Shown here: positions 4,305 to 39,289 of the stretch, in pieces
How positions within the stretch are numbered: the first letter of the stretch is position 1
Layout: each line of letters begins with the position of its first letter
Origin: Candidatus Nomurabacteria bacterium
Lineage (GTDB): Bacteria > Patescibacteriota > Minisyncoccia > Phycocordibacterales > UBA9973
Length of the DNA: 39,289 nucleotides
NCBI GenBank assembly: GCA_023267315.1
Contig: JAHFNN010000007.1
Coordinates: 1-39,289 of the forward strand
Direction of reading: 5' to 3'
Program-made: the position numbers and the translations under genes
The notes under the pieces: model-generated
Seen by the model: only the letters and a program-made list of their open reading frames with translations
The model's database searches: none
What the model was told of the DNA's origin: nothing

Positions 4305-4727
4305 ATGCCTACAATCAATCAATTAGTTAAAAAAAGCCGAAAGAAAGTATCCCGCAAATCAAAGGCGGTTGCTTTGGCTCGTGGATTCAATGCAATCAAG
4401 AACCGACCAGTATATTACCCTGCTCCATTTAAGCGTGGTGTGTGCGTGAAGGTTACGACAACAACTCCAAAGAAGCCTAACTCAGCGCTCCGAAAGATTG
4501 CCCGCGTACGTCTTACAAACGGTATGGAAGTGACTGCATATATCCCAGGAGAAGGACATAACCTCCAAGAACACTCAGTGGTGATGCTTCGTGGTGGTCG
4601 TGTGAAGGACTTGATCGGAGTACGATACCACATCGTTCGCGGTGTGCTTGATGCAACCGGTGTTGAAAAGAGACGACAGGGCCGTTCACGATACGGTAAC
4701 AAGCGCCCAAAGGCAGCAAAAGCATAA
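4305..4727 (+). CDS. rpsL: 30S ribosomal protein S12
   Basis: MPTINQL..., [13 protein letters not shown] and [13 protein letters not shown] are hallmark S12 motifs. Confidence 0.97.
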
Positions 4728-4752
4728 TCTAATTTTTATATCTATATAAACC

Positions 4753-5223
4753 ATGCGTAGAAAAGTAAACAATCGAAATATCGTAAAGCCAGACATTAAA
4801 TACAACTCTCCAAAGGTTGGGAAGTTTATTAACAATGTCATGAACTCTGGTAAGAAAGAAACCGCACGACGCGTTGTGTACAAGGCTTTTGATGTAATCA
4901 AAGAAAAGACTGGAAATTCAAATCCACTTGAAGTCTTCGATCTCGCAATCAAGAACGCAAGCCCACTCGTTGAAGTTCGCTCACGTCGTATCGGTGGTGC
5001 AAACTACCAAGTGCCTCGTGATGTTCGCCCAGAACGACGAAATGCACTCGCAATTCGCTGGATTCTCCTTGCTGCTCGCTCAAAGAAAGGACAGCCAATG
5101 CATATCAAACTCGCTGATGAATTAATTGCTGCATCAAAAAATGAAGGTACTGCCGTGAAGAAGCGTGATGATACCCACAAGATGGCAGAATCAAACAAAG
5201 CATTTGCTCACTTTGCTTGGTAA
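4753..5223 (+). CDS. rpsG: 30S ribosomal protein S7
   Basis: 156 aa. Contains GKK..A..I.Y.A, VEVRSRRIGGANYQVP and a C-terminal NKAFAHFAW, as in the S7 family. It lies directly after rpsL. Confidence 0.97.
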   Translation: MRRKVNNRNIVKPDIKYNSPKVGKFINNVMNSGKKETARRVVYKAFDVIKEKTGNSNPLEVFDLAIKNASPLVEVRSRRIGGANYQVPRDVRPERRNALAIRWILLAARSKKGQPMHIKLADELIAASKNEGTAVKKRDDTHKMAESNKAFAHFAW

Positions 5224-5243
5224 TACTAAAACAATTAAAAAAT

Positions 5244-5271
5244 AAAACCCCCCGCTAAAGCGGGGGGTTTT
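5244..5271 (+). terminator. Intrinsic terminator after rpsG
   Basis: aaaaccccccgc-taaa-gcggggggtttt: a GC-rich perfect stem followed by a T-run. Confidence 0.85.
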
Positions 5272-5424
5272 GTGGTTATACACACTTTTTGTTTTTTACT
5301 CAATCAAAAAAGCATATAATATACGTAAGTTAAAAATACCAGCATGTCCGTCGAACGCATGCTGTATCATTTTATAAATTAATCATTAATTAGTAGTTCA
5401 CTTTTTATGAAGTGAAAAGTTATT

Positions 5425-6228
5425 ATGGAAAATATGAATAGTAATTCAAAACAAAATCCAATCATCATGATCCTCCTCGTAGTGATCTTGGCATTGGTTG
5501 CGTACCTCGTAATTAATAGTACAACAAAGACCACACCAGTTGGTGAGAATCAGTCAGCGGCAGCAGGAAAGCCAAAAACTAATTCGAATACTAAGCATAC
5601 TACACACAACAACTTCGTTGTGGATACTATTGCTCCAGTTATAACATCATTTACAACTCCTTCTACCAGTCATTCATTGTCGATACCTTATAGTATTGTT
5701 GCAACCGATGATAGCGGTATTGTAACTGGTTACATTGTTACTATGGGTACACGACCAACAGCAAGTGATCTAGGTTGGACAACTAGTGCTTCTGGCACAT
5801 ACGTATTACCAGCATCTGTTGATGGTAAAATGATGACACTCAATGCGTATGCAAAAGATGCAGCTGGAAATATCTCAAATGCATTCTCTTCGCCTACAAT
5901 TTACGTAACCCTATCAGGTGGCACTCCAGACACTATTCCTCCTACTGTTAATATTACATCTCCAATGGATGGTGATGTTGTATCAGGAATTGTACCGTTT
6001 ACTGTTAGTGTTACTGATAATATTGCTGTCAAAAGCGTATATTTCTATGCTGATAATGGTGCTATTAATGTGGGTAGGTGTGATGCTGGTCAAGCTTGTA
6101 ATTCCCTTAGTGAATACAAGGCGTACTTAGATACTACGAAGCTCACTCCTGGAATGCACTGGCTTACTGTTCAAGCGTATGATACAACCGGCAACGAAAA
6201 TGAGCAGTGGATTCAAGTTACTATCTAG
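5425..6228 (+). CDS. Membrane-anchored exoprotein with two Ig-like domains
   Basis: 267 aa with an N-terminal anchor IIMILLVVILALVAYLVI. Domain 1 (VVDTIAPVITSF...AYAKDAAGNISNA) matches a domain of the neighbouring giant subtilase. Domain 2 (DTIPPTVNITSP...VYFYADNG...LDTTKLTPGMHWLTVQAYDTTGNE) matches domains in 14932..15744 and 23826..27581. Confidence 0.75.
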   Translation: MENMNSNSKQNPIIMILLVVILALVAYLVINSTTKTTPVGENQSAAAGKPKTNSNTKHTTHNNFVVDTIAPVITSFTTPSTSHSLSIPYSIVATDDSGIVTGYIVTMGTRPTASDLGWTTSASGTYVLPASVDGKMMTLNAYAKDAAGNISNAFSSPTIYVTLSGGTPDTIPPTVNITSPMDGDVVSGIVPFTVSVTDNIAVKSVYFYADNGAINVGRCDAGQACNSLSEYKAYLDTTKLTPGMHWLTVQAYDTTGNENEQWIQVTI

Positions 6229-6248
6229 TCGTAATAAATATTAACCAC

Positions 6249-6284
6249 AAAAAATCCCTCGCTTTAGCGGGGGATTTTTGTTTT
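6249..6284 (+). terminator. Intrinsic terminator
   Basis: aaaatccctcgc-ttta-gcgggggatttt with one G-U pair, followed by a T-run. Confidence 0.75.
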
Positions 6285-6372
6285 CCACATATCAATTGTG
6301 CTGTATCACCTTGATAGTTCTATACTGTAGATACCTTTATATTAATAATTATCCTTAGTGCATTATTTAAAA

Positions 6373-9300
6373 ATGAAAAAAACAAAGATATTTCTTGCGG
6401 TAGGAGTTTTTATCGCCGTAATCCTCGTCGTAGTTTTAGGGCGCATAATGCTCAATCAAAAGTTCAATGGTAATCAACAGGCTGCTGCTAATTCTGCCAT
6501 TGTGACATCATCCGATGGGCGTATCTTGTCAAAAGAAATGCAGGTTGGTTTGCTTGGTGTAGACGCAGAATACGGAGTTAACTCTGGCGTCTCGCTTATT
6601 CCAGGGAAAGGATATATTGAAGAGCCCGAACTTTCTTCTGAATCTCTTGGTGTGATGGTCGTCCTCAAAGATGATCCTCTTGGTAAAAATTATGAACAGT
6701 TGCATAAGAATGGACTCTCGAAGGCAGATATTAAATCAAAAATTGCACTAAAGGCACAGGATATTAGATCAAAACACGAAGCACTGAAGTCTTTTATTAA
6801 ACAAAAAACAAAAAAGAACCTCATTGGTCCTGGTCAAAAACAAAATGGTGCGCTTCGCATTCAAGAATACAAAAATGCATTGAATGCTATTTCTTTCCGA
6901 GATATTTCGTATGAAGAAGCCAAAACACTTTTTGCTGGAAGGACAGATATTGCAAGTATTTCTCGAAATAAATTAGTGAGTATTGATTTAAACGATTCAG
7001 TACCGCAGATGGATGTCCCTGATGTTTGGAAATTGTATGGCCCTGTAGGTGTTCCACTTGATGGTACCGGGACGACAATAGGGATTATTGATTCGGGTGT
7101 GCAGTATACTCATCCAGATTTAGGTGGATGTTATGGGAACAATAATCCGTTATCTACCTGCAAGGTTGTTGGGGGATATGATTTTGTAAACCATGACAAT
7201 GACCCGACAGACGACAATGGGCACGGTACACACGTTGCTGCTACTGCTGCAGGGAATGGAACTCTTATAACTGACACTGGAACGATTCCTCTTCCTGGTG
7301 TTGCTCCTGGTGCAAAAATATATGCCTATAAAGTAATGAATAATCGAGGGAGTGGTGGATCGGATGACATTATCGCTGGTATTGAACGCTGTACTGATCC
7401 AAACCAAGATGGAGATTTATCCGATCATTTGGATGTTTGTAGTATGAGTCTTGGTAGCTCTTCAGGTGATCCTGATGATGACATGTCTATTGCTGTTGAT
7501 AATGCAAGTGCTGTTGGAACTGTCTTCACAATTGCAGCAGGTAATAGTGGACCTGGTGCTCAAACGATAGGTTCTCCTGGTACTTCTCGTAGTGCAATTA
7601 CCGTAGCGGCAAGTTGTAAAACAGCACAAATTGGAAAAGATGGACAATGCACAACACCAATCGCAAATTTCTCATCCCGTGGCCCTGTTAAATGGACAGA
7701 CGCAGGAGGTATAGATCAGACACTTATGAAGCCAGATATTGCAGCTGTTGGCCATATGATTTGTGCAGCAAAAGCTTCATTTGTTGTTGGAGGCTCTCCA
7801 TGTGGTCCAGACCATTTTGCAATTTCAGGTACATCTATGGCTACCCCTCATGTTGCTGGAGCGGCAGCTATTGTTCGTGAAGCTCATCCTGAATTTTCAG
7901 CAGCAGAAATTAAAAAGGCACTTATGGATCACGCACGAGATCTAGGATTGCCGGGAACTGTTCAAGGAGCGGGGGAAGTTGATCTTGCAGGAACAATTAA
8001 TGCAATCAGTATTTCAACAAATGAAGTAGATATCCAAGGTTCCCCAGTTACTTTTGCAGATCCTACTACTTCTTTAACCCAAACCTTTACAAAAAATGTT
8101 AGTTTGAAAAATAAAACCAACGCGCCTGTCACTGCAACTTTTAGTCTTGTAAATAATCAGGCAGGGTACGATATGGTTCTTAATGATACAAACGGTAAGG
8201 CTATTTCATCAGCTGTTTTGCCTGCTAATGCTACAGTTTCATTTACTGTCTCTGTTACTGTTCATCATGATGTTGCACGTACTGCGAATATATTTAGTGG
8301 TCTTGTTAAAATTTCAACAGGACCTGCTACAAATCAGAAATTACAATTTTCTGTTGTTGTGACCTCGGATCATCGAATTTCTTCAACTATTACTTCATTC
8401 AATTATGATCTAGTTGCACCTTCTGGTGATACAAAGAATGAATCATTTACGATCACAAACAAACTCATAGATGCTCCAGTAACACTCACTGCGAAGGTTC
8501 GTTGTTGTACATCGGGCTCAGGGGTGATGACTGATCTTGGAGGGACAATCAATAGTCAGGCATCGTATAGTTTTACCTTAGCGAAAGGAGAACAAAAAAC
8601 ACTTGCCATGAAATTAGCAATTCCAAGTAGTCTGATGAATACAAATTATACTGGATATATTGATATCACCTCTTCGTTGGAAAACTTCTCAATACCCATT
8701 ACTTTCTTCAAGGGATATAAAATTTCCATTGATTTTGATGCGGTGCGTCCAACAGTCATAAATATGAAGAATGAATTGACTGGGGGGTCAATGGCGATAT
8801 GGTTGCCTGGTAACAGTCAAACTAATTTATACTTCGGTACGAATGGCCCGTATGATGTCATGGCGTTATGGAATGACACCACTCTTAATAAATGGGATAC
8901 AATCGTTGTTCGTGATTCAATTGATCCTGCCGTTACACCACGAATTTCTCTCAAAAAATCTGACGCTGTTTATGAACAGAAATTCGACTTTAGAGATAGG
9001 TATAATAATGCTGTGGTTGGGAATTATATGGGGTCAGTTTTGACTGCCTCAAAAGGTACAAAAGGATTCTCGTTTTGGGCATCGACTTCTCTTTCATCTT
9101 TATGGACGAATGCGATGCCAGACACATATACTATCGAATATGCTGCATTCAAAAATAACCCCGCAACTGTTTTTGGGGCTGCAATAAAAGGGGTGACTGC
9201 TAGTAAAACATTTACAAATAGTCCGAATGATTTAAAAAAGTTCATAGCCAAATCATTTGATCCAAACATTCCGAATTTCTCTTTCGAGGTTGGCGCGCAG

Positions 9301-12300
9301 ATGGTCGGGCCAGTTTCACCTGCTTCTACTCGATATAATATTTGGGCTGATTCATTACTTGGATCATTCACTACGTCAGATCGTTATTTTGGGATAAATG
9401 GAATGGGTCAATTTGATGTGTATATGGCGCAACAATCTGATCCAGAAATTACAGGGACACTTGAGTATCCAATCTTTGATATCCTAGGACAGAATAAAGA
9501 TGGTGTTATTGTTTATAAGACACCAGCATATACACTTGCGCCTAGTGGTGTTTTGCGAGGTCTTTCCACTGGACACACATTCAGATCTTCTCTGTATAAT
9601 GGTTTGTATCAAAATATAAAGACTCCTTCTACTTCATACTTTATACCAATTGCACAAGGTCCAATGATTGATACGTCTGTTTGGGGTGTAAACGCAAACA
9701 ATTCTGGAGGTATGATTTCTGCGCTGCCAGAGACGAACTCATTATATGTAAACCAAGGAAGAGGGAACGATTTCTGGGGGTACTATAATTCTCCTAGTTT
9801 CCATGATTATTCGATTCCATATACTATTAGTATTGATGGAAAGCTAACGAAAACTGGAAATATTCCATACAACACTTCGACTGGATATTATCCTTCTCTC
9901 ACCCTTGATCAAAGCACTGATCCAATCCCAAAAACACAGTCAGGTTTATATTCTGTTACTACTACTCACAACTATCAAACTCAAGGAATTCCTCTTACCG
10001 CCAAAACAACTGTTACATTTACTGTAAGTGCAACTCCACATGACGCAAATCCTCCACGATTAATCGATTTACAGATACGAGGTGGTGGATATACACAAGA
10101 GGTGATTGATAGTAATCTTGCAAATACATTAGCATTTAGTCTAGATCATGTTGCTGGTGTAACGGGATGGCCGGAAGAGACGGTTCTTACAGGAGGTTCA
10201 CTTGCCTCTGTTTCCGCTTCATACAAATCTCATACGGATTCAAATTGGACAAATCTTTCTATTGCACAAACCTCTGGTGAATATACCGCTCCAATTTCAG
10301 TAATTTCTGGTGCTGCATTGTATGATTTCAAGATTTTTGCAAAGGATCAGGATGGTAATACTTATACGTATGAGTTCAGTGTTCCGTCAGGGTCAGGTGT
10401 TTCATTACCAAGTGCCACTGATGACACCACTCCACCCTCAGCGCCAGCAAATGTTTTGGTTACCACAACAGGCACTACTGCCACTATTACTTGGGATCCA
10501 TCTACTGATACAGGTGGCTCGGGTCTTGCGGGCTATAATGTTTTCAAAAAAAATCCTGATACTTCAAGAACAAATCTAAATACTACACCGGTTACTGGAA
10601 CTTCGTATACTGTCACGGGGCTTACTCCTTCGAAGGCGTATGTTATGGGGGTAGAATCTATAGATAAAGCAGGCAATGTATCTCAGGAAGTTGTATTTTT
10701 CGCAATAACAACATCGGATACTACAGCTCCATCGGTTCCTACTAATCTTGTTTCTTCAAGTAAAACGACCTCAAGTGTCTCTCTTTCATGGTCAGCGTCG
10801 ACAGATGATGTTGGTGTAACTGGTTATGAAGTATTTAAAAATGGTCAATCGGTCGGCACAACAACTACTACCTCATTCACTGCATCAAATCTCCTTGCTG
10901 GTACTCAATATTCATTTACAGTTCGAGCACGTGATGCTGTTGGTAATTATTCTGCTCAGTCTAGTGCCTTACTTGTAACAACAAATAATGCAGCTGACAC
11001 AACCCCACCAGTAATTTCTGCCATAAGCGCCTCATCAATTACTTCAAGTGGTGCTGTAGTTAAATTTACTACAGATGAAAGTGCTAATACGGAAATATAT
11101 TATGGTACTGTGTCATCGACATATCCATTTTCACTTGTCGATAATTCAATGGCCATTTCCCACAACATTACTCTTTCGGGTCTTTCTGCAAATACAAAAT
11201 ATTATTACATTGTTAAATCAAAAGATGGAGTGGGAAATCCAAGTACTTCGTCAGAAAACTCATTCACTACACTTACTGCATCTGACACAACACTTCCTAT
11301 TGTTACCGCATTCACTATTCCTGCTACTAATGGATCATTAGTAGTTCCAATAACCACATTTACTGCAAGTGATAATATTGGTGTCACTGGATATTTGGTG
11401 AATGAATCATCAACTAAACCAACAATCGGCGCTTCTGGCTGGAGCACAACAAAACAAACAAGTTATACTTTTGTATCAGCTGGTACAAAAACAATCTATG
11501 CTTGGGTGAAAGATGCTGCAGGAAATATTTCAGCAAGTAGAAGTGCTTCTGTTACCATATCTATTACTACAAACATTCCTCCGTCAATTACTCCACTTTC
11601 TTCAGTAACCCTCTCTCTCCCAACGCACACTCTCGCACTCTCTCCAGTTGTGAGTGATGACAACTATAATGGTTCAAAAGTTACGGCAACGTGGAGTGGT
11701 ACGAACGTTGTTTTTACTCCAATAACAACAACTGGGACTGCGCCAATCACTGCTGCAACCACTGCAACTTTCCCAAGTACCGCTGGGTCGTACCCAATTA
11801 CTCTTACCGCAACAGATGGTACCTTAGTTACTACTGTAACTATGATGGTTACTATAGCCACAGCGGGTACGTGTGCATCTCCATTTTCAGATAATTTCAA
11901 TACCACAACACTCAATTCTTGTTGGAGTAAGGTTTCTGGTGGCTGGAGTATCCTAAACAATCAACTTACCAATGGGGCGACCGCGACTACTCAACTTATT
12001 ACTATCCCAACAATTGTAGGTTCAACTCAATCAGTAACTGTTACGATTACTCCAACAAATACCCAAGCTACAAAGATGGGTGTTGTTCTTCGACAGCAGG
12101 CAGGGAACTACTATATCTGTGATAAGGAATATGGTGGTTCTGCGATCTACCGTATATCTAAAGTTACAAATAATACTGCCCCTGTCTCACTTGCAACGAT
12201 TGCCTCAAATAATACTCTTGGTTCCTACACTTTCACCTGTTCAATTTCAGGGTCAACAATCACTATAACGACCCCTGTGGGCACTAAAACAATTACAGAT

Positions 12301-12390: not shown

Positions 12391-12398
12391 GAGAAAAT

Positions 12399-12448
12399 AA
12401 ACCACCCAGCAAAAAACTCCCTTGAGGGAGTTTTTTGCTGGGTGGTTT
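12399..12448 (+). terminator. Very strong intrinsic terminator
   Basis: Perfect ~23-bp stem aaaccacccagcaaaaaactccc / gggagttttttgctgggtggttt with a 4-nt loop. Confidence 0.85.
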
Positions 12449-12475
12449 GCAAAAAACCAGTATATGTCATATAGT
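12447..12475 (+). promoter_or_regulatory. Candidate sigma70-type promoter for fusA
   Basis: TTGCAA (12447..12452), a 17-nt spacer, then TATAGT (12470..12475), about 130 nt upstream of the fusA ATG. Confidence 0.4.
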
Positions 12476-12608
12476 ATTGGCACGACTTTCCGGAGTCGTT
12501 TTTTATTATGACGAGCGATAGATGTGTGGCAGTGTACTCACTGACAGGATATCTGAGTGATGTCGTATTAATGTACTCATTATTACTTTTAAGCAAAATA
12601 AGTTATTT

Positions 12609-14759: not shown

Positions 14760-14770
14760 TTATATAAATA

Positions 14771-14804
14771 AAAATCATCCGTAAATCGGATGATTTTTAT
14801 TTTA
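14771..14804 (+). terminator. Intrinsic terminator after fusA
   Basis: aaaatcatccg-taaat-cggatgatttt followed by a T-run. Confidence 0.8.
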
Positions 14805-14931
14805 GTAAGATATCAGTGCTGTGTATAACTTTTTTGCAGTACTGAGAAAAAAAGACTATTGTAGTATATATAAGAATTAGTTCGAGTCGAAAGTATTTAC
14901 TACATTAAAGTTTACTAGTCATAAACAATTT

Positions 14932-15744: not shown

Positions 15745-15782
15745 TCAAAGAAGATATTGTATTTGTAATACAGGATATCAAC

Positions 15783-28039: not shown

Positions 28040-28049
28040 AAGTAATCTT

Positions 28050-28079: not shown

Positions 28080-28081
28080 GT

Positions 28082-28110
28082 TTGACTTCAATCTCTTTGA
28101 ATGGTATTCT
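28082..28110 (+). promoter_or_regulatory. Candidate promoter for pyrF
   Basis: TTGACT (28082..28087), a 17-nt spacer ending in TGg, then TATTCT (28105..28110). Confidence 0.4.
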
Positions 28111-28158
28111 GACCCCGAATTAGAAATCTATTGTTAAACAAGTTAAAAACTAAAAATT

Positions 28159-28944: not shown

Positions 28945-28964
28945 TTTTGGTTTTGAATACAAAA

Positions 28965-29004
28965 TAAAAAAGGATAACCCCGATGTTTCGGTGTTATCCT
29001 TTTC
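28965..29004. terminator. Bidirectional terminator between pyrF and pyrE
   Basis: aaaaaaggataac-cccgatgtttcgg-tgttatcctttt, between convergent genes. Confidence 0.7.
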
Positions 29005-29029
29005 TTTTTGCCTTAAATTACAAATTAAA

Positions 29030-29710: not shown

Positions 29711-29787
29711 TTAGAATTTAGAGTTTAAATGATTTATTTCAAATTTACCCATTTCTACCATACAAAAGGTGGTAAGGCAATCAAAAT

Positions 29788-29824
29788 AAAAAAGTGGAAT
29801 CCAGTACAACTGAATTCCACTTTT
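29788..29824 (-). terminator. Intrinsic terminator after the dihydroorotase-like gene (minus strand)
   Basis: gtggaat...attccac stem. The minus strand continues with ttttttatttt. Confidence 0.65.
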
Positions 29825-29861
29825 GTGCGTATCTTTTGATACAGTTTAATTAAATGTGCGA

Positions 29862-31223: not shown

Positions 31224-31391
31224 GACGGTATATGGATTTTAGTTGGTTATTTTAGTTGTGAATTTGTCTTCATACTACGTATTTTTGCTTAAAAGGCAAA
31301 TAGAAAAAGATAATTAAAAACTTTACTTTGTATAAGAATAAGCTTACTATTTCTTAGGTTTAGAACTATATAAAACTTAAAATCAACCGCT

Positions 31392-31931
31392 ATGAATATA
31401 CCTACTAGTACTCTTTTTACCCAGGAAAATTTCTGGGGCACTCATTTTAAAAAAGTTGCTCTTCTGAAAAATTTCCCTCGAATTGAGGGGGTTATACATT
31501 ATTCCGATGTGATTGGCACCGATTCTGTATATCTCAAATTCTATAATGAAACTACGAATGAGTTCCAATACAAGTATTTTCATTTAGAGGATTTTCAGAT
31601 TGTGCAAGATTGTTCGAGATTATTTTTTAAAAACCTTGATGCTTTTGCAGAAAAAATAAAAATTGGTCCGGCAAGAGTTTTTAAAGAAAAAATTGCTGAG
31701 ATTCAAATTACAGATACCCATAGAGAGCTCCTTCTTTTTGCTGAATATTTATACGTATGTGGCAGATATAAGTGGGCACAACCGCTTTTATTTAAAGATA
31801 TGGCAAAGGATTTAAGAGTCGCCAGAATGAAAGGTCTATTAAAAGATTGCAGTGAAGTACATGTCGAACTTCTGCTTCGACTTGTTGCAGCTCGTATCGG
31901 GTATGTATTAGGGAATCATCCCGGAGACTAA
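31392..31931 (+). CDS. Hypothetical cytoplasmic protein
   Basis: 179-aa ORF with no TM segment and no recognisable motif. It is followed by a terminator. Confidence 0.5.
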   Translation: MNIPTSTLFTQENFWGTHFKKVALLKNFPRIEGVIHYSDVIGTDSVYLKFYNETTNEFQYKYFHLEDFQIVQDCSRLFFKNLDAFAEKIKIGPARVFKEKIAEIQITDTHRELLLFAEYLYVCGRYKWAQPLLFKDMAKDLRVARMKGLLKDCSEVHVELLLRLVAARIGYVLGNHPGD

Positions 31932-31948
31932 GCGGTAATGATATTCAA

Positions 31949-31985
31949 GAAGCCCAATATACTAAAAAGTATGTTGGGTTTTTTA
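31949..31985 (+). terminator. Intrinsic terminator
   Basis: cccaatatact-aaaa-agtatgttggg with one G-U pair, followed by tttttta. Confidence 0.7.
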
Positions 31986-32168
31986 TTTTAACCCTAATTG
32001 GTACTATTTTTAGTAAAACTATCAAAAATGACTCAAAAGTAGTGGTATGAACCTATCTCATTGACGCGATACTCTACTTATAAATATCGTGTAGTCTATC
32101 GATATATAGGTAGAGTCTTAGCTAAGGCGCGATCCCTGTGTTTTAAAGGGGAAATAAGCGAGCAATAT

Positions 32169-32196
32169 TTGACATTATTATAGGATTTGCTAGTAT
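32169..32196 (+). promoter_or_regulatory. Strong sigma70-type promoter for the rpsS...rplE block
   Basis: TTGACA (32169..32174), a 16-nt spacer, then TGc-TAGTAT (32191..32196). The architecture and flanks match the tuf promoter (gcgagc..atttgaca.tta.t.ta...tttgctagtatg). Confidence 0.7.
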
Positions 32197-32235
32197 GAAC
32201 CCACTGGCTCTAGAGGAGCTATTTTAATTAGTCAC

Positions 32236-32583
32236 ATGACACGATCACTTAAAAAAGGACCATATGTAGACCTACGCCTTCTCAAGAAGATTGAGGGCAA
32301 AAAGCCTTTGGATACAGGGGTTATTAAGACTTGGGCTCGAGCATCACAGATCTCTCCAGAAATGGTGGGTTTCATCTTTGGTGTCCACAATGGTAAAAAC
32401 CACGTTGAAGTACTCGTTACTGAAGACATGGTAGGTCATCGATTGGGTGAATTTTCCCTTACTCGTAAGTTCGTCCGTCATGGAGGTCAAATGCAGAAGG
32501 CTATTGAAGCGAAGCAGAAAGAGTCTGAAATTGCAGCTGCTCAAGCAGCTAAGGCTTCTGTCTCTGATAAGGCTAAGAAATAA
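32236..32583 (+). CDS. rpsS: 30S ribosomal protein S19 with a C-terminal extension
   Basis: [12 protein letters not shown]...VHNGK..V.V..T..MVGH.LGEF..TR is the S19 pattern. About 20 extra C-terminal residues. Confidence 0.95.
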
Positions 32584-32601
32584 TTTTTTTATATATAAAC
32601 C

Positions 32602-33057
32602 ATGCGCGCTACACTTACAAACTACAGACAATCACCTCGAAAGGTTCGCCTCGTTGCAAACCTCATAAAAGGGAAGAGTGTTGATCAGGCTAATACAGAG
32701 CTCTCATTTTTGGCTAAGCGTGCGTCATTGCCATTCCAAAAGCTACTTCAGTCAGCTGTTGCAAACGCAAAACAGAACTCTGGTATAGATGCAGCAAATC
32801 TTTTTGTAGTCGATGCACGTGTTGATAAGGGTGTTGTTATGAAGCGCAGTATGCCTCGCGCGATGGGATCTGCTTCACGAATCAACAAGCGTTCAAGTCA
32901 CGTTACAATCGTGCTTGGAGAGCGTGGTGCGGTAGTCGCACCAAAGGCTAAAAAGGTTTCATTGAAGGTTGAAAAGACAGAAAAGGTTGCTGAGAAAAAG
33001 GTAGTAAAAGCTAAAACAGCCGTTAAAAAAGTTACCAAGAAAGAAAAAGCAAAATAA
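32602..33057 (+). CDS. rplV: 50S ribosomal protein L22 with a Lys-rich C-terminal tail
   Basis: 151 aa. Contains RQSPRKVRLVANLIKG and GVVMKRSMPRAMGSASRINKRSSHVTIVL, followed by a ~40-aa KKV-rich tail. Confidence 0.95.
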   Translation: MRATLTNYRQSPRKVRLVANLIKGKSVDQANTELSFLAKRASLPFQKLLQSAVANAKQNSGIDAANLFVVDARVDKGVVMKRSMPRAMGSASRINKRSSHVTIVLGERGAVVAPKAKKVSLKVEKTEKVAEKKVVKAKTAVKKVTKKEKAK

Positions 33058-33060
33058 TAT

Positions 33061-33732
33061 ATGTCAAAAATCGTTCACCCATATGCGCATAGATTGATTA
33101 TTCTCCGAGACTGGAAGTCTCGCTGGTTTGCGCTTGATAAAAAGTACAAGGATTACTTGAAAGGAGATGTCCTTCTTCGAGAATACCTCACGAAGAAACT
33201 TCGTGGTTTTTACGTTTCATCTATTGAAATGGAACGCAGTCCAAAATCAACCAAGATCATTATCCGTACTTCACGCCCAGGTATGATTATTGGACGTTCT
33301 GGTGAAGGTGCAGTCAAACTCAAACAAGATATCATTCGCACAATGAAGAAAATGAAAGTGAGTGTTCCAGAGGAACTCAAAGTTGATATTGTTGAAATCC
33401 CAGTACCAGAAGCTGATGCTGCAATTGTTGCATACATGGTCGCTGAAGGACTTGAAAAGCGTATGCCGTATCGTCGTGTCATGAAACAGACGATTGAAAA
33501 GGTGATGAATGCACGTGGTGTGCAGGGAGCACGTGTGGTGCTTGGTGGCCGCTTGGGTGGAGCTGAAATTTCTCGTGGGGAAGAGTTGAAGCGTGGTTCT
33601 ATTCCACTTCAGACCTTCCGTGCAGATATCGATTTCGCTCGCGAGAAGGCACACATGACATACGGAGACATCGGAATCAAGGTCTGGATTTACCGAGGAG
33701 AAGTTTTTGCTGAGAAAAAAGCAGTTAAATAA
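33061..33732 (+). CDS. rpsC: 30S ribosomal protein S3
   Basis: 223 aa. KH-domain sequence IIIRTSRPGMIIGRSGEG and a C-terminal domain LGGAEISR.E....GSIPLQTFRADIDF. Confidence 0.96.
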   Translation: MSKIVHPYAHRLIILRDWKSRWFALDKKYKDYLKGDVLLREYLTKKLRGFYVSSIEMERSPKSTKIIIRTSRPGMIIGRSGEGAVKLKQDIIRTMKKMKVSVPEELKVDIVEIPVPEADAAIVAYMVAEGLEKRMPYRRVMKQTIEKVMNARGVQGARVVLGGRLGGAEISRGEELKRGSIPLQTFRADIDFAREKAHMTYGDIGIKVWIYRGEVFAEKKAVK

Positions 33733-33737
33733 TATTT

Positions 33738-34157
33738 ATGTTGGTACCAAAAAAAGTAAAACATCGAAAATGGCACTCGGATCGTAAGAATCCAAAGACA
33801 ACAACACCTGACACACGAGGTACGACTCTTTCATTTGGTTCATTTGGATTGAAAGCTATCACTGGTACACGTGTCCGTTCAAACCAAATCGAGTCTGCTC
33901 GTAAAGCAATGGCGCGTAGTGTTTCAAAGACTGGCCGTGTCTGGATTCGTATTTTCCCTGATCGACCATATACCTCAAAGCCACCAGAAGTGGGAATGGG
34001 AAAAGGAAAGGGTGATCCACAAGGATACTGTTTTGAAGTACGCCCAGGACGAATCATTTTTGAAGTTGATGGAGTTGAAGAAGCTGTTGCGCGTGAAGCA
34101 CTTCGAAAGGCAGGTACCAAATTGCCAATCAAGACTCGCGTAGTAAGCCGAGCATAA
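33738..34157 (+). CDS. rplP: 50S ribosomal protein L16
   Basis: MLVPKKVKHRKWH..., RIFPD.P.T.KP.EVGMGKGKG.P and the operon position. Confidence 0.96.
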   Translation: MLVPKKVKHRKWHSDRKNPKTTTPDTRGTTLSFGSFGLKAITGTRVRSNQIESARKAMARSVSKTGRVWIRIFPDRPYTSKPPEVGMGKGKGDPQGYCFEVRPGRIIFEVDGVEEAVAREALRKAGTKLPIKTRVVSRA

Positions 34158-34166
34158 TACATTTTT

Positions 34167-34355
34167 ATGGAAGACATTAAAAAGATGAATGACAACGAAA
34201 TAAAGAAGTCGATTACTGAGAAACAAGAAAAGTTGCGATCATTTCGATTTGGTATTTCAGGCGGAAAGACAAAGAACGTCAAAGAAGGACGAACTCTTCG
34301 CCGAGAAATCGCGCAGCTATTTACTGAACTTACTTCACGTGCATTACAAGCGTAA
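34167..34355 (+). CDS. rpmC: 50S ribosomal protein L29
   Basis: 62 aa, helical and Lys/Glu-rich (EKLRSFRF....GKTKNV...R.LRREIAQL), lying between rplP and rpsQ. Confidence 0.88.
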   Translation: MEDIKKMNDNEIKKSITEKQEKLRSFRFGISGGKTKNVKEGRTLRREIAQLFTELTSRALQA

Positions 34356-34364
34356 TATTTATAT

Positions 34365-34616
34365 ATGAAAGAAAAAGTTGAAATAACAAAAAATAAGAAA
34401 GCGCTTCGCGGTACGGTTGTATCTGACAAGATGGATAAGACTGTTGTCGTTTCAGTAACTCGCTTCGTAAAGCACCCTAAGTACAAGAAGCACATCAAAA
34501 AGAGTAAGCGATACAAGGCGCATGATGAGAATAATACCTATAAAGTAGGTGACATTGTGACGATTCAAGAAACACGACCAATGTCGAAAGATAAGCATTT
34601 TAAAGTATTAGCATAA
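34365..34616 (+). CDS. rpsQ: 30S ribosomal protein S17
   Basis: 83 aa. Contains [18 protein letters not shown]...HP.Y.K......K...HDE.N....GD.V.I.E.RP.SK. Confidence 0.95.
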
Positions 34617-34620
34617 TTAT

Positions 34621-34992
34621 ATGATTCAAGACGGAACAGTAGTAAAAATTACAGATAACGCCGGCGGTAAGATCGGCAAGGTATTCAAAGTGCTCGGTGG
34701 TTCACGCCGACGCTATGCTTCTATTGGCGACCGCGTCATCATTTCTATCAAGATCGCAGAACCTCGTAAGGCAGTAAAGAAAAAGGATGTACATCAAGCT
34801 GTGGTTGTTCGCGTACGAAATGCGTTCCGCCGAAAAGATGGATCATATATTCGTTTTGATGATAACGCTGTCGTGATTTTAGAAAAAGATAAACAAGAAC
34901 CAAAGGCAGGACGCGTCTTCGGTCCAATTCCTCGTGAATTGGGTGAGAAGGGCTATCAGAAGATTATTTCTTTGGCACCTGAGGTTATTTAA
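34621..34992 (+). CDS. rplN: 50S ribosomal protein L14
   Basis: MIQDGTVVKITDNAGGK...V.V.....R.DGS.IRFD.NA.V....GPI.REL is the L14 signature. Confidence 0.96.
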   Translation: MIQDGTVVKITDNAGGKIGKVFKVLGGSRRRYASIGDRVIISIKIAEPRKAVKKKDVHQAVVVRVRNAFRRKDGSYIRFDDNAVVILEKDKQEPKAGRVFGPIPRELGEKGYQKIISLAPEVI

Positions 34993-34996
34993 TACT

Positions 34997-35302
34997 ATGA
35001 ATATCAAGAAAGGAGACAACGTAATAGTTATCGCTGGTAAAGACAAAGGCAAGAAGGCTAAGGTATTGGGAGTATTCGCAAGTCAGAACCGCGTATTGGT
35101 TGAAGGCATCAACATGAAGAAGAAACACCAAAAGCCTCGCCGCACCAATGAGAAAGGTCAAACAATCGAAGTCGCAACACCACTCCACATTTCAAACGTT
35201 ATGCTTATTGATTCAAAATCAGGAAAGCAGACACGTGTTGGTTCAAAGATGGCAGGTGGTAAGAAGATTCGAGTTAGTAAGAAGTCAGGAAATGAAATTT
35301 AA
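34997..35302 (+). CDS. rplX: 50S ribosomal protein L24
   Basis: MNIKKGDNVIVIAGKDKGKKAKV (KOW motif). The start at ATG 34997 is internal to the ORF-track start at 34934, which would overlap rplN. Confidence 0.93.
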   Translation: MNIKKGDNVIVIAGKDKGKKAKVLGVFASQNRVLVEGINMKKKHQKPRRTNEKGQTIEVATPLHISNVMLIDSKSGKQTRVGSKMAGGKKIRVSKKSGNEI

Positions 35303-35307
35303 ATCAT

Positions 35308-35856
35308 ATGAGTAAACATCTTACAGTAAAAGAAAAAGAGCAGAAGTCCTACGAATCAATGAAGGGCGTATTCGGCTACAAGAATAAAATGGCTGCTCCA
35401 CGTCTCGTGAAGATTGTGGTTGCATCTGGAACAGGATCAGGACTCAAGCGTGATAAGAATCGAAATGATTTGATCATTGATCGTTTGGGTAAGATCACTG
35501 GTCAGCGTTCAGCTGTGCGTGCTGCAAAGAAATCTATCGCATCATTCAAAATTCGTCAGGGAGATCCTGTCGGCGTGATGGTTACACTTCGTGGTGCACG
35601 TATGTATGGATTCTTGGACAAGCTCATCAATGTATCAATTCCTCGAACAAAAGACTTCCGTGGCGTTGATCGAAAGATAGTAGATAATATCGGTAATCTT
35701 ACGATGAGTATTAAGGAGCACACTATTTTCCCAGAAACGGGGGATGAAGAATTGAAAGACGTGTTCGGAATGGCAGTGACGGTGGTGACGACAGCAAAGA
35801 CTAAACCTGAAGCAATCGCATTTTTTGAGAATCTCGGATTTCCATTTAAGAAATAA
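35308..35856 (+). CDS. rplE: 50S ribosomal protein L5
   Basis: 182 aa. Contains PRLVKIVV..G.G, FKIRQGDPVGV.VTLRG..MY.FLDKLI....PR..DFRG, and the operon position. Confidence 0.96.
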   Translation: MSKHLTVKEKEQKSYESMKGVFGYKNKMAAPRLVKIVVASGTGSGLKRDKNRNDLIIDRLGKITGQRSAVRAAKKSIASFKIRQGDPVGVMVTLRGARMYGFLDKLINVSIPRTKDFRGVDRKIVDNIGNLTMSIKEHTIFPETGDEELKDVFGMAVTVVTTAKTKPEAIAFFENLGFPFKK

Positions 35857-35864
35857 GAAAAAAT

Positions 35865-35900
35865 AAAAAACACCCTGATATACAGGGTGTTTTTTATTTT
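35865..35900 (+). terminator. Intrinsic terminator immediately after rplE
   Basis: aaaaaacaccctg-atata-cagggtgtttttt followed by atttt. Confidence 0.85.
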
Positions 35901-35988
35901 AGTCCTTTTTACTGTTGTGATAATAGCTAAAACTGCTACTATTGATATATAACATTAATAACTCATTGTTGTTACCTTGATTGAATAT

Positions 35989-38900
35989 ATGAAAAAACAC
36001 ATAGTCTCTACTTCAATATTATTTGTGGTGCTTGTTATTCTTATTGTGTTTTTTCATGGTTCGTTCGGGTCATTATGGAAAAATTTGATGGGGGCTGCTC
36101 GTAATGCTTTTTTGAACTCGACAACACCTTCTACTGGGGTAGTTGCGACCTCTCCAAATCAATTTAAAGGTGTATCTGTCTACAGTAATGAATTTTTTAT
36201 AAAATTGAAAAAAAATACAAGTCCAACGTCGACTGATTTTAAAAATATAAATAAAAAATATGGGGTTACGTCATTCACGCAAGCTGTTAAACCACTCGCT
36301 ACTTCTAATTCATCTGCCGATGTATTTTTATGGTATAAGGTGACACTACCATACACAAAAGAAGCACTCACGCTTGATGGATCCAGGAACGATACAAATA
36401 TGACCACACAGGATAAGTTGGGAAAACTGTTCCGTGCCATTGAAGATTATAAAAAATTGAGTGGATTATCAAAGATAGAACCATCTCTGGTGTACTATCA
36501 ATTTAATAGTCCGAATGATTCATACTTTACTTCTTCTGGTAGTTGGGGACAACCGACTGATGATTTATGGAATCTTAAAAAGATAAATATGCCACTTGCG
36601 TGGGATCAAAGTACTGGAGGCAATGTGTTAGTTGCTGATATTGATACTGGACTTGATGGTGCCAATCCTGATATTTCGGGCAATGTGGTTCCTGGATTTG
36701 ATTTTTGTACGAACCTTGCAACGGGAGTGACTACTGATAACGATAAAGTTGGTCATGGTACACACACCGCAGGTATTATTGGTGCAACTGGAAATAATAC
36801 GTTGGGTATTGTTGGGATCAACTGGAAAGTTAAAATTATGCCCCTTGCTATCTTTGATAGCAATAATCACTACTGTTCTGGGGCAGGACCTACGGCTGTG
36901 ATATATGCAGCTGATAATGGCGCAAGGGTTACTAATAATAGTTGGGGAGCAATAAGTTATGATCCGCTTCTTGATGATGCATTTAGGTATGCCTATGATA
37001 AAGGTGTCATTTCTGTTGCTGCTGCGGGAAACAATAATATAGATGCACTTGCGGTATCGCCCGCTTCATTCCCATGGGTTATAACAGTTTCAGCAACTGA
37101 TTATCAGGATCAAAGAGCTTCTTTCTCTAACTGGGGAGCAAAAATTGATGTGGCGGCACCAGGAGTGGACATACTTTCACTACGTGCTTCTATGACTGAT
37201 TTTTATAATGATGGTGGGTCGCACTTTGTGCCACCATACGATTTTTCTACAAATTATATGCGCATGAGTGGTACTTCTATGGCGGCACCTCATGTTACTG
37301 GCCTCGCAGCATTACTCCTTGCAAAGTACCCAACTCTTTCAGTCGAAGGAGTTCGTCAAATAATTCGTACGAACACTCTTGATCTACTTCCGGCTGGCAA
37401 AGATGATTCTTTTGGATATGGACGAATAGATGCTGGAAGTACAATGGTGAATGCCATTACGTTACCACTTGAACCTGTTATTACGAGTCCTAAAAATGAT
37501 AGTGCGGTTGTTTCCGGGAGTGTCCCTATCTTAGGAGGTGTTGTTGGTCCTAATTTTAAATCGTACTCATTAGATTATGGAATAGGGCACTCGCCATCAT
37601 CTTGGAATAATATAGTTACCAGTACAAATCAGATCACGAGTGGTACATTGGGAACTTTTTCTGCAAATACGGTTCCTGATGGTTCGTATACGATACGTCT
37701 CACGGCAACCAACACTTCAGGTAAGACATTTGAATTTGCTGTCTATAATGTCATCGTTAATAATTTTACGATTTCGATCGTTAATCCGGTAGATTATGTT
37801 TCAAAAACTACCGCAATGCCTATTTCAGGAACGGTTAATGCAATCGCTGGTGTCACGCTTCAGTCTTACATCGTTGAATACGCTCCGGGGATCAACCCGA
37901 ATTCTGGGTGGATAACAATCGGTACAAATACAAATACCGTTGTTGATAGAACGCTTGCTTCATGGAATACCTCAGCACTTGCGTTAGGTGCGTATACTAT
38001 TCGGGTTACCGCCACGACTTCAACTGGTGCGGGAGCTACTCAACAATTTCATGTGAATGTTGACCCCGAAATGGTTCCTGGTTGGCCAAAACTTCTTTCA
38101 TATTCATGTAACGTCTGGTATCAGTGTTCTATGATGCCTGCATTTGGTGATCTCTTGGGGAATAAACAGAGAGAATTGGTGACTGCAAGTAAAAATATTC
38201 TTCATGCATATAAAAAAGATGGTAGTGAATTACCTGGCTTTCCCGTTACCCTTTCTTCAGGAGAATATTTCAACCGTGCGATAACATTAGATGATCTTGA
38301 TGGTGATGGTAAAAAAGAAATTATTGTTCCTGTTTGTCCACCAGCATATCCTGACGGTACTGCCGGAGATTGTCATATCAATATTTTCACTTCTTCTGGA
38401 GCAAGTTATCCTGGATGGACTAAACCAAAAGTTCAATTTACGTACTATATTTATCAAGGAGAAGCACTTGGTCCTGCAATCTATGATCTTGATGGTGACG
38501 GCAATAAAGAGATAGTTTTTTATGATCATTATGGTTCTTTGCATGCATATAAACTCAATGGCACAGAAATTTCTGGTTTCCCTGTGGCAACCGCGGCTCT
38601 GTTTGCATTGAAGACATCGCCAGGGGAGACTCCGTATGTATCAATTGCTGATATGGATCAAGATGGTAAACCAGAAATTGCAATGACGGTTTTAAATGGT
38701 GTTGGTGGACAGCTTAGAGTTGCTCTTTTAGATAATAAAGGAGCGGTTGTTCCTGGGTGGCCTGTCTCTATCCCAATAAGCCCAAATGCAAATCCTCCGG
38801 TTCCTTCTTCGGCTCCTACCTTCGCGGATCTTTTGGGTGATAAAAATCTTGAGATAGTTGTACCTATTGGTACGTATAATATGAAAGCAGGTGGTGATTA

Positions 38901-39289
38901 TCCTATCCACGCGTGGGCAAAAGATGGAAGCGAGGTTTCTGGATGGCCGAAGTCGTATCACAGTGATTATTTTGCCGGTGGAATTGCAGGAGGTGTTATC
39001 GCTCCCGTCGCGGCTGATTTAGATTATGATTTTAGAGACAATATTATCTATAACTTGAATGATCACTTCTTTATGTATTCACAATTAGGATCAGTGACGG
39101 ATTTTGCTGATCCATGGATACAAGGAAATCTGACGTCTCGACCGGTTGGTAATGTGAACGGTGATAACCATCTTGATTTTATTGATGCTGCATTGAGTCC
39201 TTGGTTTGGAGGCAAAGGAACAACTGGATTGGGGATTGTTGATGACACTGGAAAGGTTACGTGGCAACGAAGTTTTGATTGCGGAGATC
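35989..39289 (+). CDS. Third giant membrane-anchored subtilisin-like protease (S8) with tandem Ig-like domains and FG-GAP/VCBS-like repeats. It is 3-prime partial (no stop codon in the window) and absent from the ORF track.
   Basis: My own translation from ATG 35989 stays open for 1100 codons to the window end. N-terminal anchor ILFVVLVILIVFF. Triad motifs: VADIDTGLD (Asp 36643..36645), HGTHTAGIIGA (His 36754..36756) and SGTSMAAPHVTG (Ser 37276..37278). Repeats: LDDLDGDGKKEI, YDLDGDGNKEIV, ADMDQDGKPEIA. Confidence 0.85.
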   Translation, partial: MKKHIVSTSILFVVLVILIVFFHGSFGSLWKNLMGAARNAFLNSTTPSTGVVATSPNQFKGVSVYSNEFFIKLKKNTSPTSTDFKNINKKYGVTSFTQAVKPLATSNSSADVFLWYKVTLPYTKEALTLDGSRNDTNMTTQDKLGKLFRAIEDYKKLSGLSKIEPSLVYYQFNSPNDSYFTSSGSWGQPTDDLWNLKKINMPLAWDQSTGGNVLVADIDTGLDGANPDISGNVVPGFDFCTNLATGVTTDNDKVGHGTHTAGIIGATGNNTLGIVGINWKVKIMPLAIFDSNNHYCSGAGPTAVIYAADNGARVTNNSWGAISYDPLLDDAFRYAYDKGVISVAAAGNNNIDALAVSPASFPWVITVSATDYQDQRASFSNWGAKIDVAAPGVDILSLRASMTDFYNDGGSHFVPPYDFSTNYMRMSGTSMAAPHVTGLAALLLAKYPTLSVEGVRQIIRTNTLDLLPAGKDDSFGYGRIDAGSTMVNAITLPLEPVITSPKNDSAVVSGSVPILGGVVGPNFKSYSLDYGIGHSPSSWNNIVTSTNQITSGTLGTFSANTVPDGSYTIRLTATNTSGKTFEFAVYNVIVNNFTISIVNPVDYVSKTTAMPISGTVNAIAGVTLQSYIVEYAPGINPNSGWITIGTNTNTVVDRTLASWNTSALALGAYTIRVTATTSTGAGATQQFHVNVDPEMVPGWPKLLSYSCNVWYQCSMMPAFGDLLGNKQRELVTASKNILHAYKKDGSELPGFPVTLSSGEYFNRAITLDDLDGDGKKEIIVPVCPPAYPDGTAGDCHINIFTSSGASYPGWTKPKVQFTYYIYQGEALGPAIYDLDGDGNKEIVFYDHYGSLHAYKLNGTEISGFPVATAALFALKTSPGETPYVSIADMDQDGKPEIAMTVLNGVGGQLRVALLDNKGAVVPGWPVSIPISPNANPPVPSSAPTFADLLGDKNLEIVVPIGTYNMKAGGDYPIHAWAKDGSEVSGWPKSYHSDYFAGGIAGGVIAPVAADLDYDFRDNIIYNLNDHFFMYSQLGSVTDFADPWIQGNLTSRPVGNVNGDNHLDFIDAALSPWFGGKGTTGLGIVDDTGKVTWQRSFDCGD

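Follow-up and report, generated by a model that had tools for sequence, protein, structure and literature searches.

Gene content and order of the ribosomal region

The window analysed here is the whole 39,289-nt stretch of contig JAHFNN010000007.1 (assembly GCA_023267315.1, Candidatus Nomurabacteria bacterium). It carries the ribosomal protein and elongation factor genes of the str-S10-spc block, whose gene order is the textbook case of conservation among bacteria. The universal order rpsL-rpsG-fusA-tuf-rpsJ-rplCDWB-rpsS-rplV-rpsC-rplP-rpmC-rpsQ-rplNXE is complete and lies entirely on the + strand, and no ribosomal gene is duplicated in the window. The genes are not physically contiguous: gaps of 7.4, 4.7 and 8.6 kb separate them, and more than 3.4 kb of other DNA follows rplE. 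The listing of open reading frames (ORFs) places these four interruptions where the initial annotation of this DNA had reported them, at 5224-12608, 14760-19453, 23681-32235 and from 35857 onward. The gaps hold five genes for predicted membrane-anchored exoproteins beside other genes. The blocks and the gap genes are, in order:

4305-4727 and 4753-5223, + strand: block 1, rpsL and rpsG (Pfam Ribosom_S12_S23, 8e-37; Ribosomal_S7, 3e-59)
5425-6228, + strand: gap 1, Big7a, 267 amino acids (aa), N-terminally anchored (N-anchored), DUF7743 and Big_7 domains (Pfam; G+C content at third codon positions, GC3, 0.284)
6358-12390, + strand: gap 1, giant N-anchored S8 subtilase with fn3-type repeats, 2010 aa from GTG 6358 (Peptidase_S8, 7.7e-55; fn3, 1.5e-23)
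12609-14759, + strand: block 2, fusA, encoding elongation factor G, EF-G (TIGR00484, 1069.6 bits)
14932-15744, + strand: gap 2, Big7b, 270 aa, N-anchored Big_7 protein (Pfam Big_7, 1.3e-12)
16452-17777, - strand: gap 2, purD (Pfam GARS_A/C/N)
17912-18553, + strand: gap 2, purN (Pfam Formyl_trans_N)
18666-18983, - strand: gap 2, 105-aa ORF, no family match
19454-23680, + strand: block 3, tuf, rpsJ (about 20790-21094), rplC, rplD, rplW and rplB (NCBIfam equivalogs)
23826-27581, + strand: gap 3, M12 reprolysin-like metalloprotease with fn3, Big_7 and PKD domains, 1251 aa, N-anchored (Reprolysin_5, 4.4e-16; Big_7, 3e-25)
within 27641-31931: gap 3, dgkA (+), pyrF (+), a phosphoribosyltransferase gene (-) and an amidohydrolase gene (-), all named by Pfam, and a 179-aa ORF (+) without a family
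32236-35856, + strand: block 4, rpsS, rplV, rpsC, rplP, rpmC, rpsQ, rplN, rplX and rplE (NCBIfam; Pfam on contig L081)
35989-39289, continuing past the window end, + strand: gap 4, S8b, N-anchored S8 subtilase with FG-GAP repeats, more than 1100 aa (Peptidase_S8, 6.8e-51; FG-GAP_3, 7.6e-16)

S12 and S7 were named through Pfam, and EF-G, EF-Tu, S10, L3, L4, L23, L2, S19, L22 and S3 through NCBIfam equivalogs. L16, L29, S17, L14, L24 and L5 were named through Pfam calls on contig L081, which is 99.99% identical to the window. The initial annotation presented the gaps as sites of exoprotein genes. An exoprotein gene does lead each of them, but eight further gap genes were missing from that description (purD, purN, dgkA, pyrF, the phosphoribosyltransferase and amidohydrolase genes, and the two ORFs without a family). 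These two ORFs (18666-18983, -, and 31392-31931, +) have neither a family match nor a homologue in the 160 related loci described below. The smaller of them, of 105 aa, comes with a near-consensus promoter, TTGACA-16-CATAAT (19103-19076), and with a terminator of its own (18647-18624).

The G+C content of the window is even (0.34-0.45 per kb). Its EF-G shares 81-87% identity with EF-G from metagenome-assembled genomes that carry the labels Nomurabacteria, Paceibacterota or Patescibacteria, so the window derives from a bacterium of the Candidate Phyla Radiation (CPR), of the Parcubacteria/Paceibacteria type and close to Nomurabacteria.

A chimeric assembly, in which ribosomal fragments were joined to unrelated contigs, is highly improbable. 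Such an origin would fit the metagenomic derivation of the window and the result of exact-sequence look-ups, in which EF-G and L2 matched no other record (S7, L5 and Big7b did match records). Against it, four contigs from other assemblies and read sets (ERZ27279942, ERZ27279977, SRR14366796) match the window at 99.95-100% identity and cross one side of every junction. Contig L083 spans rpsG, Big7a and the start of the giant S8 gene; L084 spans fusA, Big7b and purD; L081 runs from the amidohydrolase gene through rpsS and rplE to S8b; and L082 spans rplE/S8b. This independent coverage is limited to one side per junction and leaves out rplB/M12 and the resumption sides of fusA (12608) and tuf (19453). 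About 100 related contigs are moreover broken at the same junctions. Misassembly is effectively excluded for the covered junction sides.

Position of the gaps in related genomes

The window proteins were mapped onto 160 related loci of Parcubacteria/Paceibacteria-like genomes: 80 from genomes, with fusA at the centre, and 80 from metagenomes, with rplE at the centre. Gaps were counted above 400 bp in the fusA-centred set and above 600 bp in the rplE-centred set; ORF calls in these relatives are crude (longest ORF). The distribution of gaps is as follows:

rpsG/fusA: 19/66 in the fusA set; outside the coverage of the rplE set
fusA/tuf: 44/55 in the fusA set; 5/6 of the loci reaching it in the rplE set
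rpsJ/rplC: 12/48 in the fusA set; 0/32 in the rplE set
rplB/rpsS: 10/29 in the fusA set; 22/38 in the rplE set
rplE/rpsH: 26/48 in the rplE set, with inserts between rplE and the 61-aa rpsN
every remaining junction: 0-1 in the fusA set; 0-2 in the rplE set

The four breaks of the window are four of the five recurrent break points of the lineage. The operon borders of Escherichia coli, tuf/rpsJ and rpsQ/rplN, are closed in essentially all loci, and distant CPR genomes (EF-G identity <=63%) mostly keep the uninterrupted order. The window is not unique, a point on which the initial annotation had made its case depend: relatives are broken at the same junctions, so the pattern is non-random, and the recurrence of the gaps makes them a lineage-wide trait and not a peculiarity of this genome. 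The window ends before the far side of its fourth gap. In relatives the spc genes resume with rpsN-rpsH after 0-5 kb, and in the window the fourth gap most likely ends at rpsN-rpsH-rplF…, past the window end.

Matches of more than 3 kb to fusA in relatives were considered as possible inteins or introns. They were discarded, the EF-G query having also matched the GTPase domain of the adjacent tuf.

Predicted promoters upstream of the ribosomal blocks

Promoter-like sites precede the blocks that resume after the three closed gaps:

12447-12475, + strand: fusA promoter-like site, TTGCAA-N17-TATAGT, followed by a leader hairpin and U-run at 12482-12499
19270-19297, + strand: tuf promoter, TTGACA-N16-TGCTAGTAT, position weight matrix (PWM) score 32.5
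32169-32196, + strand: rpsS promoter, TTGACA-N16-TGCTAGTAT, PWM score 33.6

The tuf and rpsS promoters of the window are nearly identical (GCGAGC…ATTTGACA-N16-TGCTAGTATG). Their pattern occurs twice in the window, against 0.03 occurrences expected, and these are the only two window sites scoring above 30 with the lineage promoter PWM, which was derived from pattern matches. In relatives, the lineage promoter lies upstream of tuf in 16/50 loci with the strict and 24/50 with the relaxed pattern, and upstream of rpsS in 17/40 and 34/40, respectively. The background in random 300-nt windows of the same loci is 1.6% (strict) and 6.5% (relaxed). The consensus for tuf, rpsS and rpsN is TTGACa/t-N16-17-TGcTAgTAT, with an extended -10 element. 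Several relatives carry a TTGCaAAAAA…TATAGTAT motif upstream of fusA, in many cases followed by a hairpin and U-run.

The same signals are present where nothing has been inserted. In close relatives with an uninterrupted rplB-rpsS junction (70-170 nt), the spacer holds the rpsS promoter and its short hairpin/U-run leader, and in several of these spacers (L001, L109, L134, L161) a terminator hairpin precedes the promoter. Upstream of rpsN, the extended -10 promoter occurs in 16/19 uninterrupted and 26/29 interrupted loci (rplE identity >=64%). Distant CPR genomes differ: their rplB-rpsS spacers measure 8-41 nt and have no promoter (spacers of 2-41 nt overall), and the rpsN promoter occurs in 1-2/12 distant loci, with a median rplE-rpsN spacer of 11.5 nt. 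The predicted promoters and leaders exist in uninterrupted relatives, and the seams between blocks are independent of the insertions.

Predicted terminators, repeats and mobility genes

A strong intrinsic terminator follows each ribosomal block, as first described. The four are long perfect hairpins between flanking A and U tracts (-18.5 to -25.8 kcal/mol); tested against shuffled sequence, they give z = -5 to -8. The terminators are:

5244-5271: bidirectional, after rpsG, 12-bp G+C stem, -25.8 kcal/mol, z = -5.2
6248-6284: after Big7a
12400-12447: after the giant subtilase gene, 24-bp stem, -42.2 kcal/mol, z = -10.4
14766-14802: after fusA, 16-bp stem, -18.5 kcal/mol, z = -6.7
16108-16139: downstream of Big7b
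23680-23717: after rplB, 17-bp stem, -25.8 kcal/mol, z = -8.2
27591-27632: after the M12 protease gene
35860-35900: after rplE, 18-bp stem, -22.8 kcal/mol, z = -7.3

The exoprotein genes had been singled out as terminator-bounded. The terminators are indeed there, but they are not peculiar to these genes: most inserted + strand genes end in similar ones, and the region holds roughly double the number of terminator-like sites seen in shuffled sequence (33 against an expected 14, and 23 against 12). Since terminators flank nearly every transcription unit, this is a general trait of the region. The predicted terminators and the conserved promoters together suggest at least five transcription units.

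The two terminators flanking Big7a (5238-5274 and 6248-6284) are alike, 84% complementary over 37 nt. The likeness could be a chance convergence of G+C-rich hairpins or the trace of an insertion.

Scans of the window for tRNAs, for transposase and integrase families and for att-like direct repeats found none, in agreement with the initial annotation and with its judgement that this is no ordinary mobile-element insertion. The only repeats in the window are the terminator hairpins and one 40-nt Big_7 stretch. An origin of the gaps as mobile elements was rejected, for want of supporting genes or border repeats.

Structured leaders

The tuf leader is 156 nt long. It contains a long hairpin (about 19390-19444; loop GUUCUCGUA) conserved in 28 sequences, with compensatory changes in 16/19 pairs and a conserved apical loop of consensus GGUUCUCGUA. 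This loop may be partly complementary to the sarcin-ricin loop of 23S rRNA, where EF-Tu and EF-G bind, a match that may be due to chance.

The rpsN leader of the relatives extends for about 75 nt after the strong promoter. Its core, AUC…UCUCC / AAGAAA…GAUAU, is invariant, and 13 of its 19 predicted pairs show compensatory changes. Examples, all outside the window, lie at:

L109:10586-10702
L125:8754-8870
L134:10586-10704
L161:10598-10712

Either S8 or S14 may bind this leader and in this way autoregulate the rpsN-rpsH operon.

Short hairpins with U-runs lie just past the fusA, tuf and rpsS promoters (12482-12499, about 19303-19325 and 32205-32221). Those of rpsS and tuf are kept in most relatives examined, and the fusA promoter is followed by a similar one in many. 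The rpsS stem stays paired across its variants (AGCUC/GAGCU, GGCUC/GAGCC). These hairpins look like promoter-proximal attenuators. Rfam searches of the window at E<=1 gave nothing credible, only terminator-like chance matches below the gathering scores; nothing reached the gathering scores in seven related loci, and nothing was found for the rpsN leader.

A probable chain of operons with permissive seams

We consider it likely that this region consists of separately promoted operons whose terminator-to-promoter seams admit unrelated genes, and that this architecture is lineage-wide. The region would then be a chain, rpsL-rpsG / fusA / tuf-rpsJ-rplCDWB / rpsS…rplE / rpsN…, and not one superoperon cut up, and some relatives would add a boundary at rpsJ/rplC. 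At each boundary one operon would end in an intrinsic terminator and the next would begin with a strong sigma-70-type promoter and its conserved leader. This promoter would be of the type TTGACa/t-N16-17-TGcTAgTAT for tuf, rpsS and rpsN and of the variant TTGCaAAAAA…TATAGTAT for fusA. On the simplest reading, the ancestor of the lineage had already split the cluster in this way. DNA entering between a terminator and the next promoter would leave ribosomal gene expression undisturbed; insertions being harmless in this respect, the seams would be permissive sites of repeated gene gain, loss and movement. In this genome, the four seams would have gained large anchored exoproteases and Ig-domain proteins beside housekeeping genes of purine, pyrimidine and lipid metabolism.

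The gaps are junction-specific and mixed in content, and the promoters and leaders are conserved, uninterrupted relatives included. We infer that the predicted promoters and terminators are functional and that it is they which make insertions tolerable.

Several points weigh against this interpretation. All promoters, terminators and leaders were predicted from the sequence and its conservation, and the PWM scores are partly circular because the matrix was built from pattern matches. A co-directional anchored exoprotein gene opens all four seams here, which a model of permissive seams leaves unexplained. Such a gene opens 18/81 gaps in relatives, so that four in a row would have a probability of about 0.002-0.01, a post-hoc value that assumes independence. 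Anchored proteins also occur in gaps at about twice their rate in the flank control, an excess that pure neutrality would not predict unless the accessory genes of these genomes are rich in surface proteins in general. The excess may reflect no more than this. These counts come from crude ORF calls in relatives and from a hydropathy heuristic for anchors that also flags metallo-beta-lactamase (MBL) and dgkA.

Gene content of the gaps

The contents of the gaps vary widely among relatives. An all-against-all blastp of gap ORFs and window proteins left 191 singletons, and 99 gap ORFs of relatives (>=150 aa) match 71 Pfam families, including PG_binding_1 (5), DUF3298 (4), dgkA (2), APH (2), asparaginase, an ABC transporter, HepT and pyr genes. 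Just one S8, one fn3 and one Big_7 protein are among these 99. The five exoproteins of the window have no orthologue in the 160 related loci, where the only matches of this type are fn3-type domains (L005, L021) and one 34%-identical S8 domain (L051). Even relatives at 81-87% EF-G identity have wholly different gap contents. The initial annotation had proposed that selection places a protease or adhesin repertoire in this neighbourhood; these contents do not support the proposal, exoprotease occupancy of the gaps not being conserved in related genomes. Protease occupancy is peculiar to this genome, and the seams are common to the whole lineage.

A few gap genes recur or change position. The rplB/rpsS gap contains dgkA in at least 15 related loci; L109, L112, L130, L132 and L134 have pyrF immediately before tuf; and an amidohydrolase homologue occupies the fusA/tuf gap of L001. 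All three are together in the rplB/rpsS gap of the window.

The five exoproteins

The genes that open the gaps, together with the giant S8 gene that stands second in gap 1, encode two S8 subtilases, one M12 metalloprotease and two small Big_7 proteins. All five genes are co-directional (+) and encode modular proteins with a predicted membrane anchor, as originally noted; each protein begins with a Lys-rich stretch and a single hydrophobic helix. The start codon of the giant subtilase gene is likely the ATG at 6373. Its catalytic motifs are D245/H289/S491, those of S8b D219/H256/S428; both domains exceed the Pfam cut-off (186.7 and 173.7 bits), with DSG/DTG, HGTH and GTSMA motifs intact. By domain, triad and N-terminal helix, both qualify as subtilase exoproteases, with activity and export predicted. 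In the M12 protease, HEEGHLLGPNH at residue 392 fits HExxHxxGxxH, and Reprolysin_5 scores 60.1 bits against a cut-off of 27.

The claim that the five proteins share domain cassettes holds for the domain types, which are common to them, but not for any recent common copy: identity is only 29-37% and is limited to the fn3/Big_7 or S8 regions, and the sole DNA repeat is the 40-nt Big_7 stretch. Recent duplication was rejected on these grounds.

The codon and G+C comparison proposed in the initial annotation gave a divided result. The GC3 of the five exoprotein genes (0.26-0.28) is lower than that of ribosomal genes (Mann-Whitney p = 0.002) and of other non-ribosomal genes (0.27-0.41; p = 0.007), while their overall G+C content (0.39-0.41) is native-like. 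All other window genes range from 0.27 to 0.45 in GC3, and only rplP (0.271) and the 179-aa ORF (0.272) overlap the exoprotein range.

The nearest relatives of the S8 domain of the giant protein (6358-8157) share 36-57% identity over the aligned part. Most are named as DPANN archaea (Woese-, Nano-, Pace-, Aenigm- and Micrarchaeota), with a few CPR bacteria, which hints that this subtilase family is exchanged among ultra-small episymbionts. The contexts of three S8 homologues (L165-L167) are non-ribosomal and include Fic, PriA and other S8, Big_7 and PKD genes. Clusters of S8 with Big_7/PKD genes found elsewhere (L165:1570-7454; L167:2841-12589) resemble the pair formed by Big7a and the giant S8 gene. 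Genes of these types may travel as small exoprotein cassettes.

Low GC3 and the mostly DPANN names among the relatives of the giant's S8 domain suggest that the five genes are accessory and possibly horizontally acquired. A more specific form of this idea, which we hold only tentatively, is that they are recent gains, possibly from DPANN archaea or co-habiting CPR bacteria, through recombination in the conserved ribosomal flanks or through an unrecognised element targeting terminators. Their GC3 fits this, as only the 179-aa ORF is equally low among the other non-ribosomal genes, and so do the best S8 relatives, the absence of all five genes from relatives at 81-87% EF-G identity and the likeness of the terminators flanking Big7a. 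However, overall G+C is native-like, mobility genes are absent, and target duplications are lacking beyond the terminator hairpins. Low GC3 could also stem from fast evolution, low expression or amino-acid composition, and the names of the sources come from binned metagenomes and may be wrong. Horizontal gain addresses only the arrival of the genes and is therefore compatible with permissive seams between operons.

Proposed expression of the exoprotein genes by read-through

The initial annotation proposed that exoprotease and adhesin genes are selected for their position behind ribosomal genes, with terminator read-through coupling their dosage to ribosome synthesis. We regard this proposal as improbable. 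It has some evidence on its side: all five genes share the direction of the ribosomal genes and are found 130-200 bp downstream of a ribosomal-gene terminator, and in the PWM scan none has the strong promoter type of the lineage, so that some dependence on read-through may exist. A few relatives have large fn3 or S8 proteins in the fusA/tuf gap (L005, L021, L051). ORFs predicted to be N-anchored are also enriched in gaps, 61/192 and 13/37 against 55/354 in the 10-kb upstream flank (0.32-0.35 against 0.16; Fisher 1.6e-5 and 5e-3), in a comparison whose flank control is imperfect, being made of conserved neighbours, and whose anchor test is a crude hydropathy rule.

Other evidence is contrary. 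The absence of orthologues from all 160 loci and the 71 Pfam families of the gaps, with their single S8 and single Big_7 protein, speak against selection for such a repertoire, and the S8 homologues of L165-L167 sit beside Fic, PriA and S8/Big_7 genes, not beside ribosomal genes. The terminators upstream of the exoprotein genes are strong, with long perfect stems and U-tracts (-18 to -26 kcal/mol). The GC3 of the exoprotein genes is the lowest in the window, unlike that of ribosomal genes, and a shared direction is the rule in these loci, for 75-84% of all ORFs. From these sequence features, coupling to ribosome synthesis appears unlikely, and a ribosome-coupled exoprotease system is mostly unsupported.

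We give as little credence to a combined version, with five to six operons, one strong promoter type and new leaders (fusA, tuf, rpsS, rpsN), in which the seams would be preferred sites for surface and secreted genes expressed by residual read-through. If true, it would offer a reduced genome a regulator-free route to tie host-facing or scavenging surface proteins to growth.

Upstream flank

The genes preceding rpsL are:

130-990, + strand: MBL-fold hydrolase (family scan)
1121-2158 and 2181-3164, + strand: two paralogous N-anchored proteins, no Pfam family
3221-3466, - strand: rpmB (L28)
3494-4189, + strand: M50 peptidase

The two tandem paralogues both begin with MNYKKG…, followed by low-complexity N/Q/T-rich linkers. 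Their place before the ribosomal region shows that in this genome anchored surface proteins are not confined to the gaps but are common elsewhere too. A 90-aa ORF (3228-3500, +) that seemed conserved in relatives was rejected as the antisense shadow of rpmB (3221-3466, -).

Comparison with known systems

In Gammaproteobacteria and Bacilli, insertion of multigene segments into the translation-gene cluster, with its subsequent separation, has been described (PMC8046335, Brandis 2021; PMC6735719). As in those cases, unrelated segments, including nucleotide and amino-acid biosynthesis genes, lie between members of the cluster; the sites fall between transcription units; and the inserted order is not kept in relatives. 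The segments in the window are shorter than 10 kb and the order of the cluster is otherwise kept. The differences are in position, rate and origin. The described insertions lie between canonical operons (e.g. rpoBC-str, str-S10), whereas those reported here lie inside canonical str, S10 and spc; the former are infrequent, with many lineages stable over billions of years, and here turnover is quick; the former are often tied to duplications or transposable elements, of which no transposon traces are seen here. In addition, the present breaks are common to a whole CPR lineage, with conserved promoters and leaders of their own. They coincide with the predicted operon borders of this lineage, the canonical tuf/rpsJ and rpsQ/rplN junctions being closed.

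The seams also resemble the core-gene-flanked hotspots of E. coli (Touchon et al. 2009, PMC2617782), where the same flanks enclose different accessory genes, many without mobile-element genes; here, too, identical core flanks enclose differing content across relatives. Unlike those hotspots, the seams lie inside the most conserved bacterial gene cluster and were seen across genera or families, not strains.

The leaders are comparable to those of known ribosomal protein operons (the E. coli S10 leader with its L4 attenuator, the S8 site of spc and the Rfam r-leaders; PMC7247131) in being covarying, structured 5' leaders placed before the first gene of an operon, some with an attenuator-like hairpin and U-run. 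Eckert & Weinberg 2020 (PMC7247131) make no mention of CPR, rpsN, uS8, uS14 or uS19. Unlike the known leaders, those described here match no Rfam family.

Regrouping of str and S10 genes is itself familiar. In cyanobacteria, plastids and archaea the str operon has rpsJ attached to it, and in mycobacteria both tuf and rpsJ and rpsQ and rplN are separated by non-ribosomal genes. As in those lineages, the universal order is kept here with unit borders that differ from those of E. coli, and tuf-rpsJ is a tight pair here too. We know of no described L2/S19 or L5/S14 split with a dedicated promoter. The initial annotation knew of no description of its arrangement as a system, and our literature searches, with most subscription journals outside their coverage, found no account of split CPR ribosomal operons. 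Insertion into the cluster itself is already known; the present case differs in that the breaks lie inside canonical operons, are lineage-wide, have dedicated promoters and leaders, and show fast turnover without traces of mobile elements.

Implications for gene order in CPR bacteria

The 16 'syntenic' ribosomal proteins of this block are the standard markers that place CPR genomes in the tree of life. In the lineage studied here, the block appears to be split at fixed internal points (L2/S19, L5/S14, S7/EF-G and EF-G/EF-Tu), each with a predicted promoter and leader of its own. A by-product of this comparison is a set of candidate new regulatory RNA leaders. The constraint on order would act on co-transcription units and not on the whole cluster, and the seams between these units would be naturally occurring places where fast gene turnover can be predicted, in very small genomes without recognisable mobile elements.

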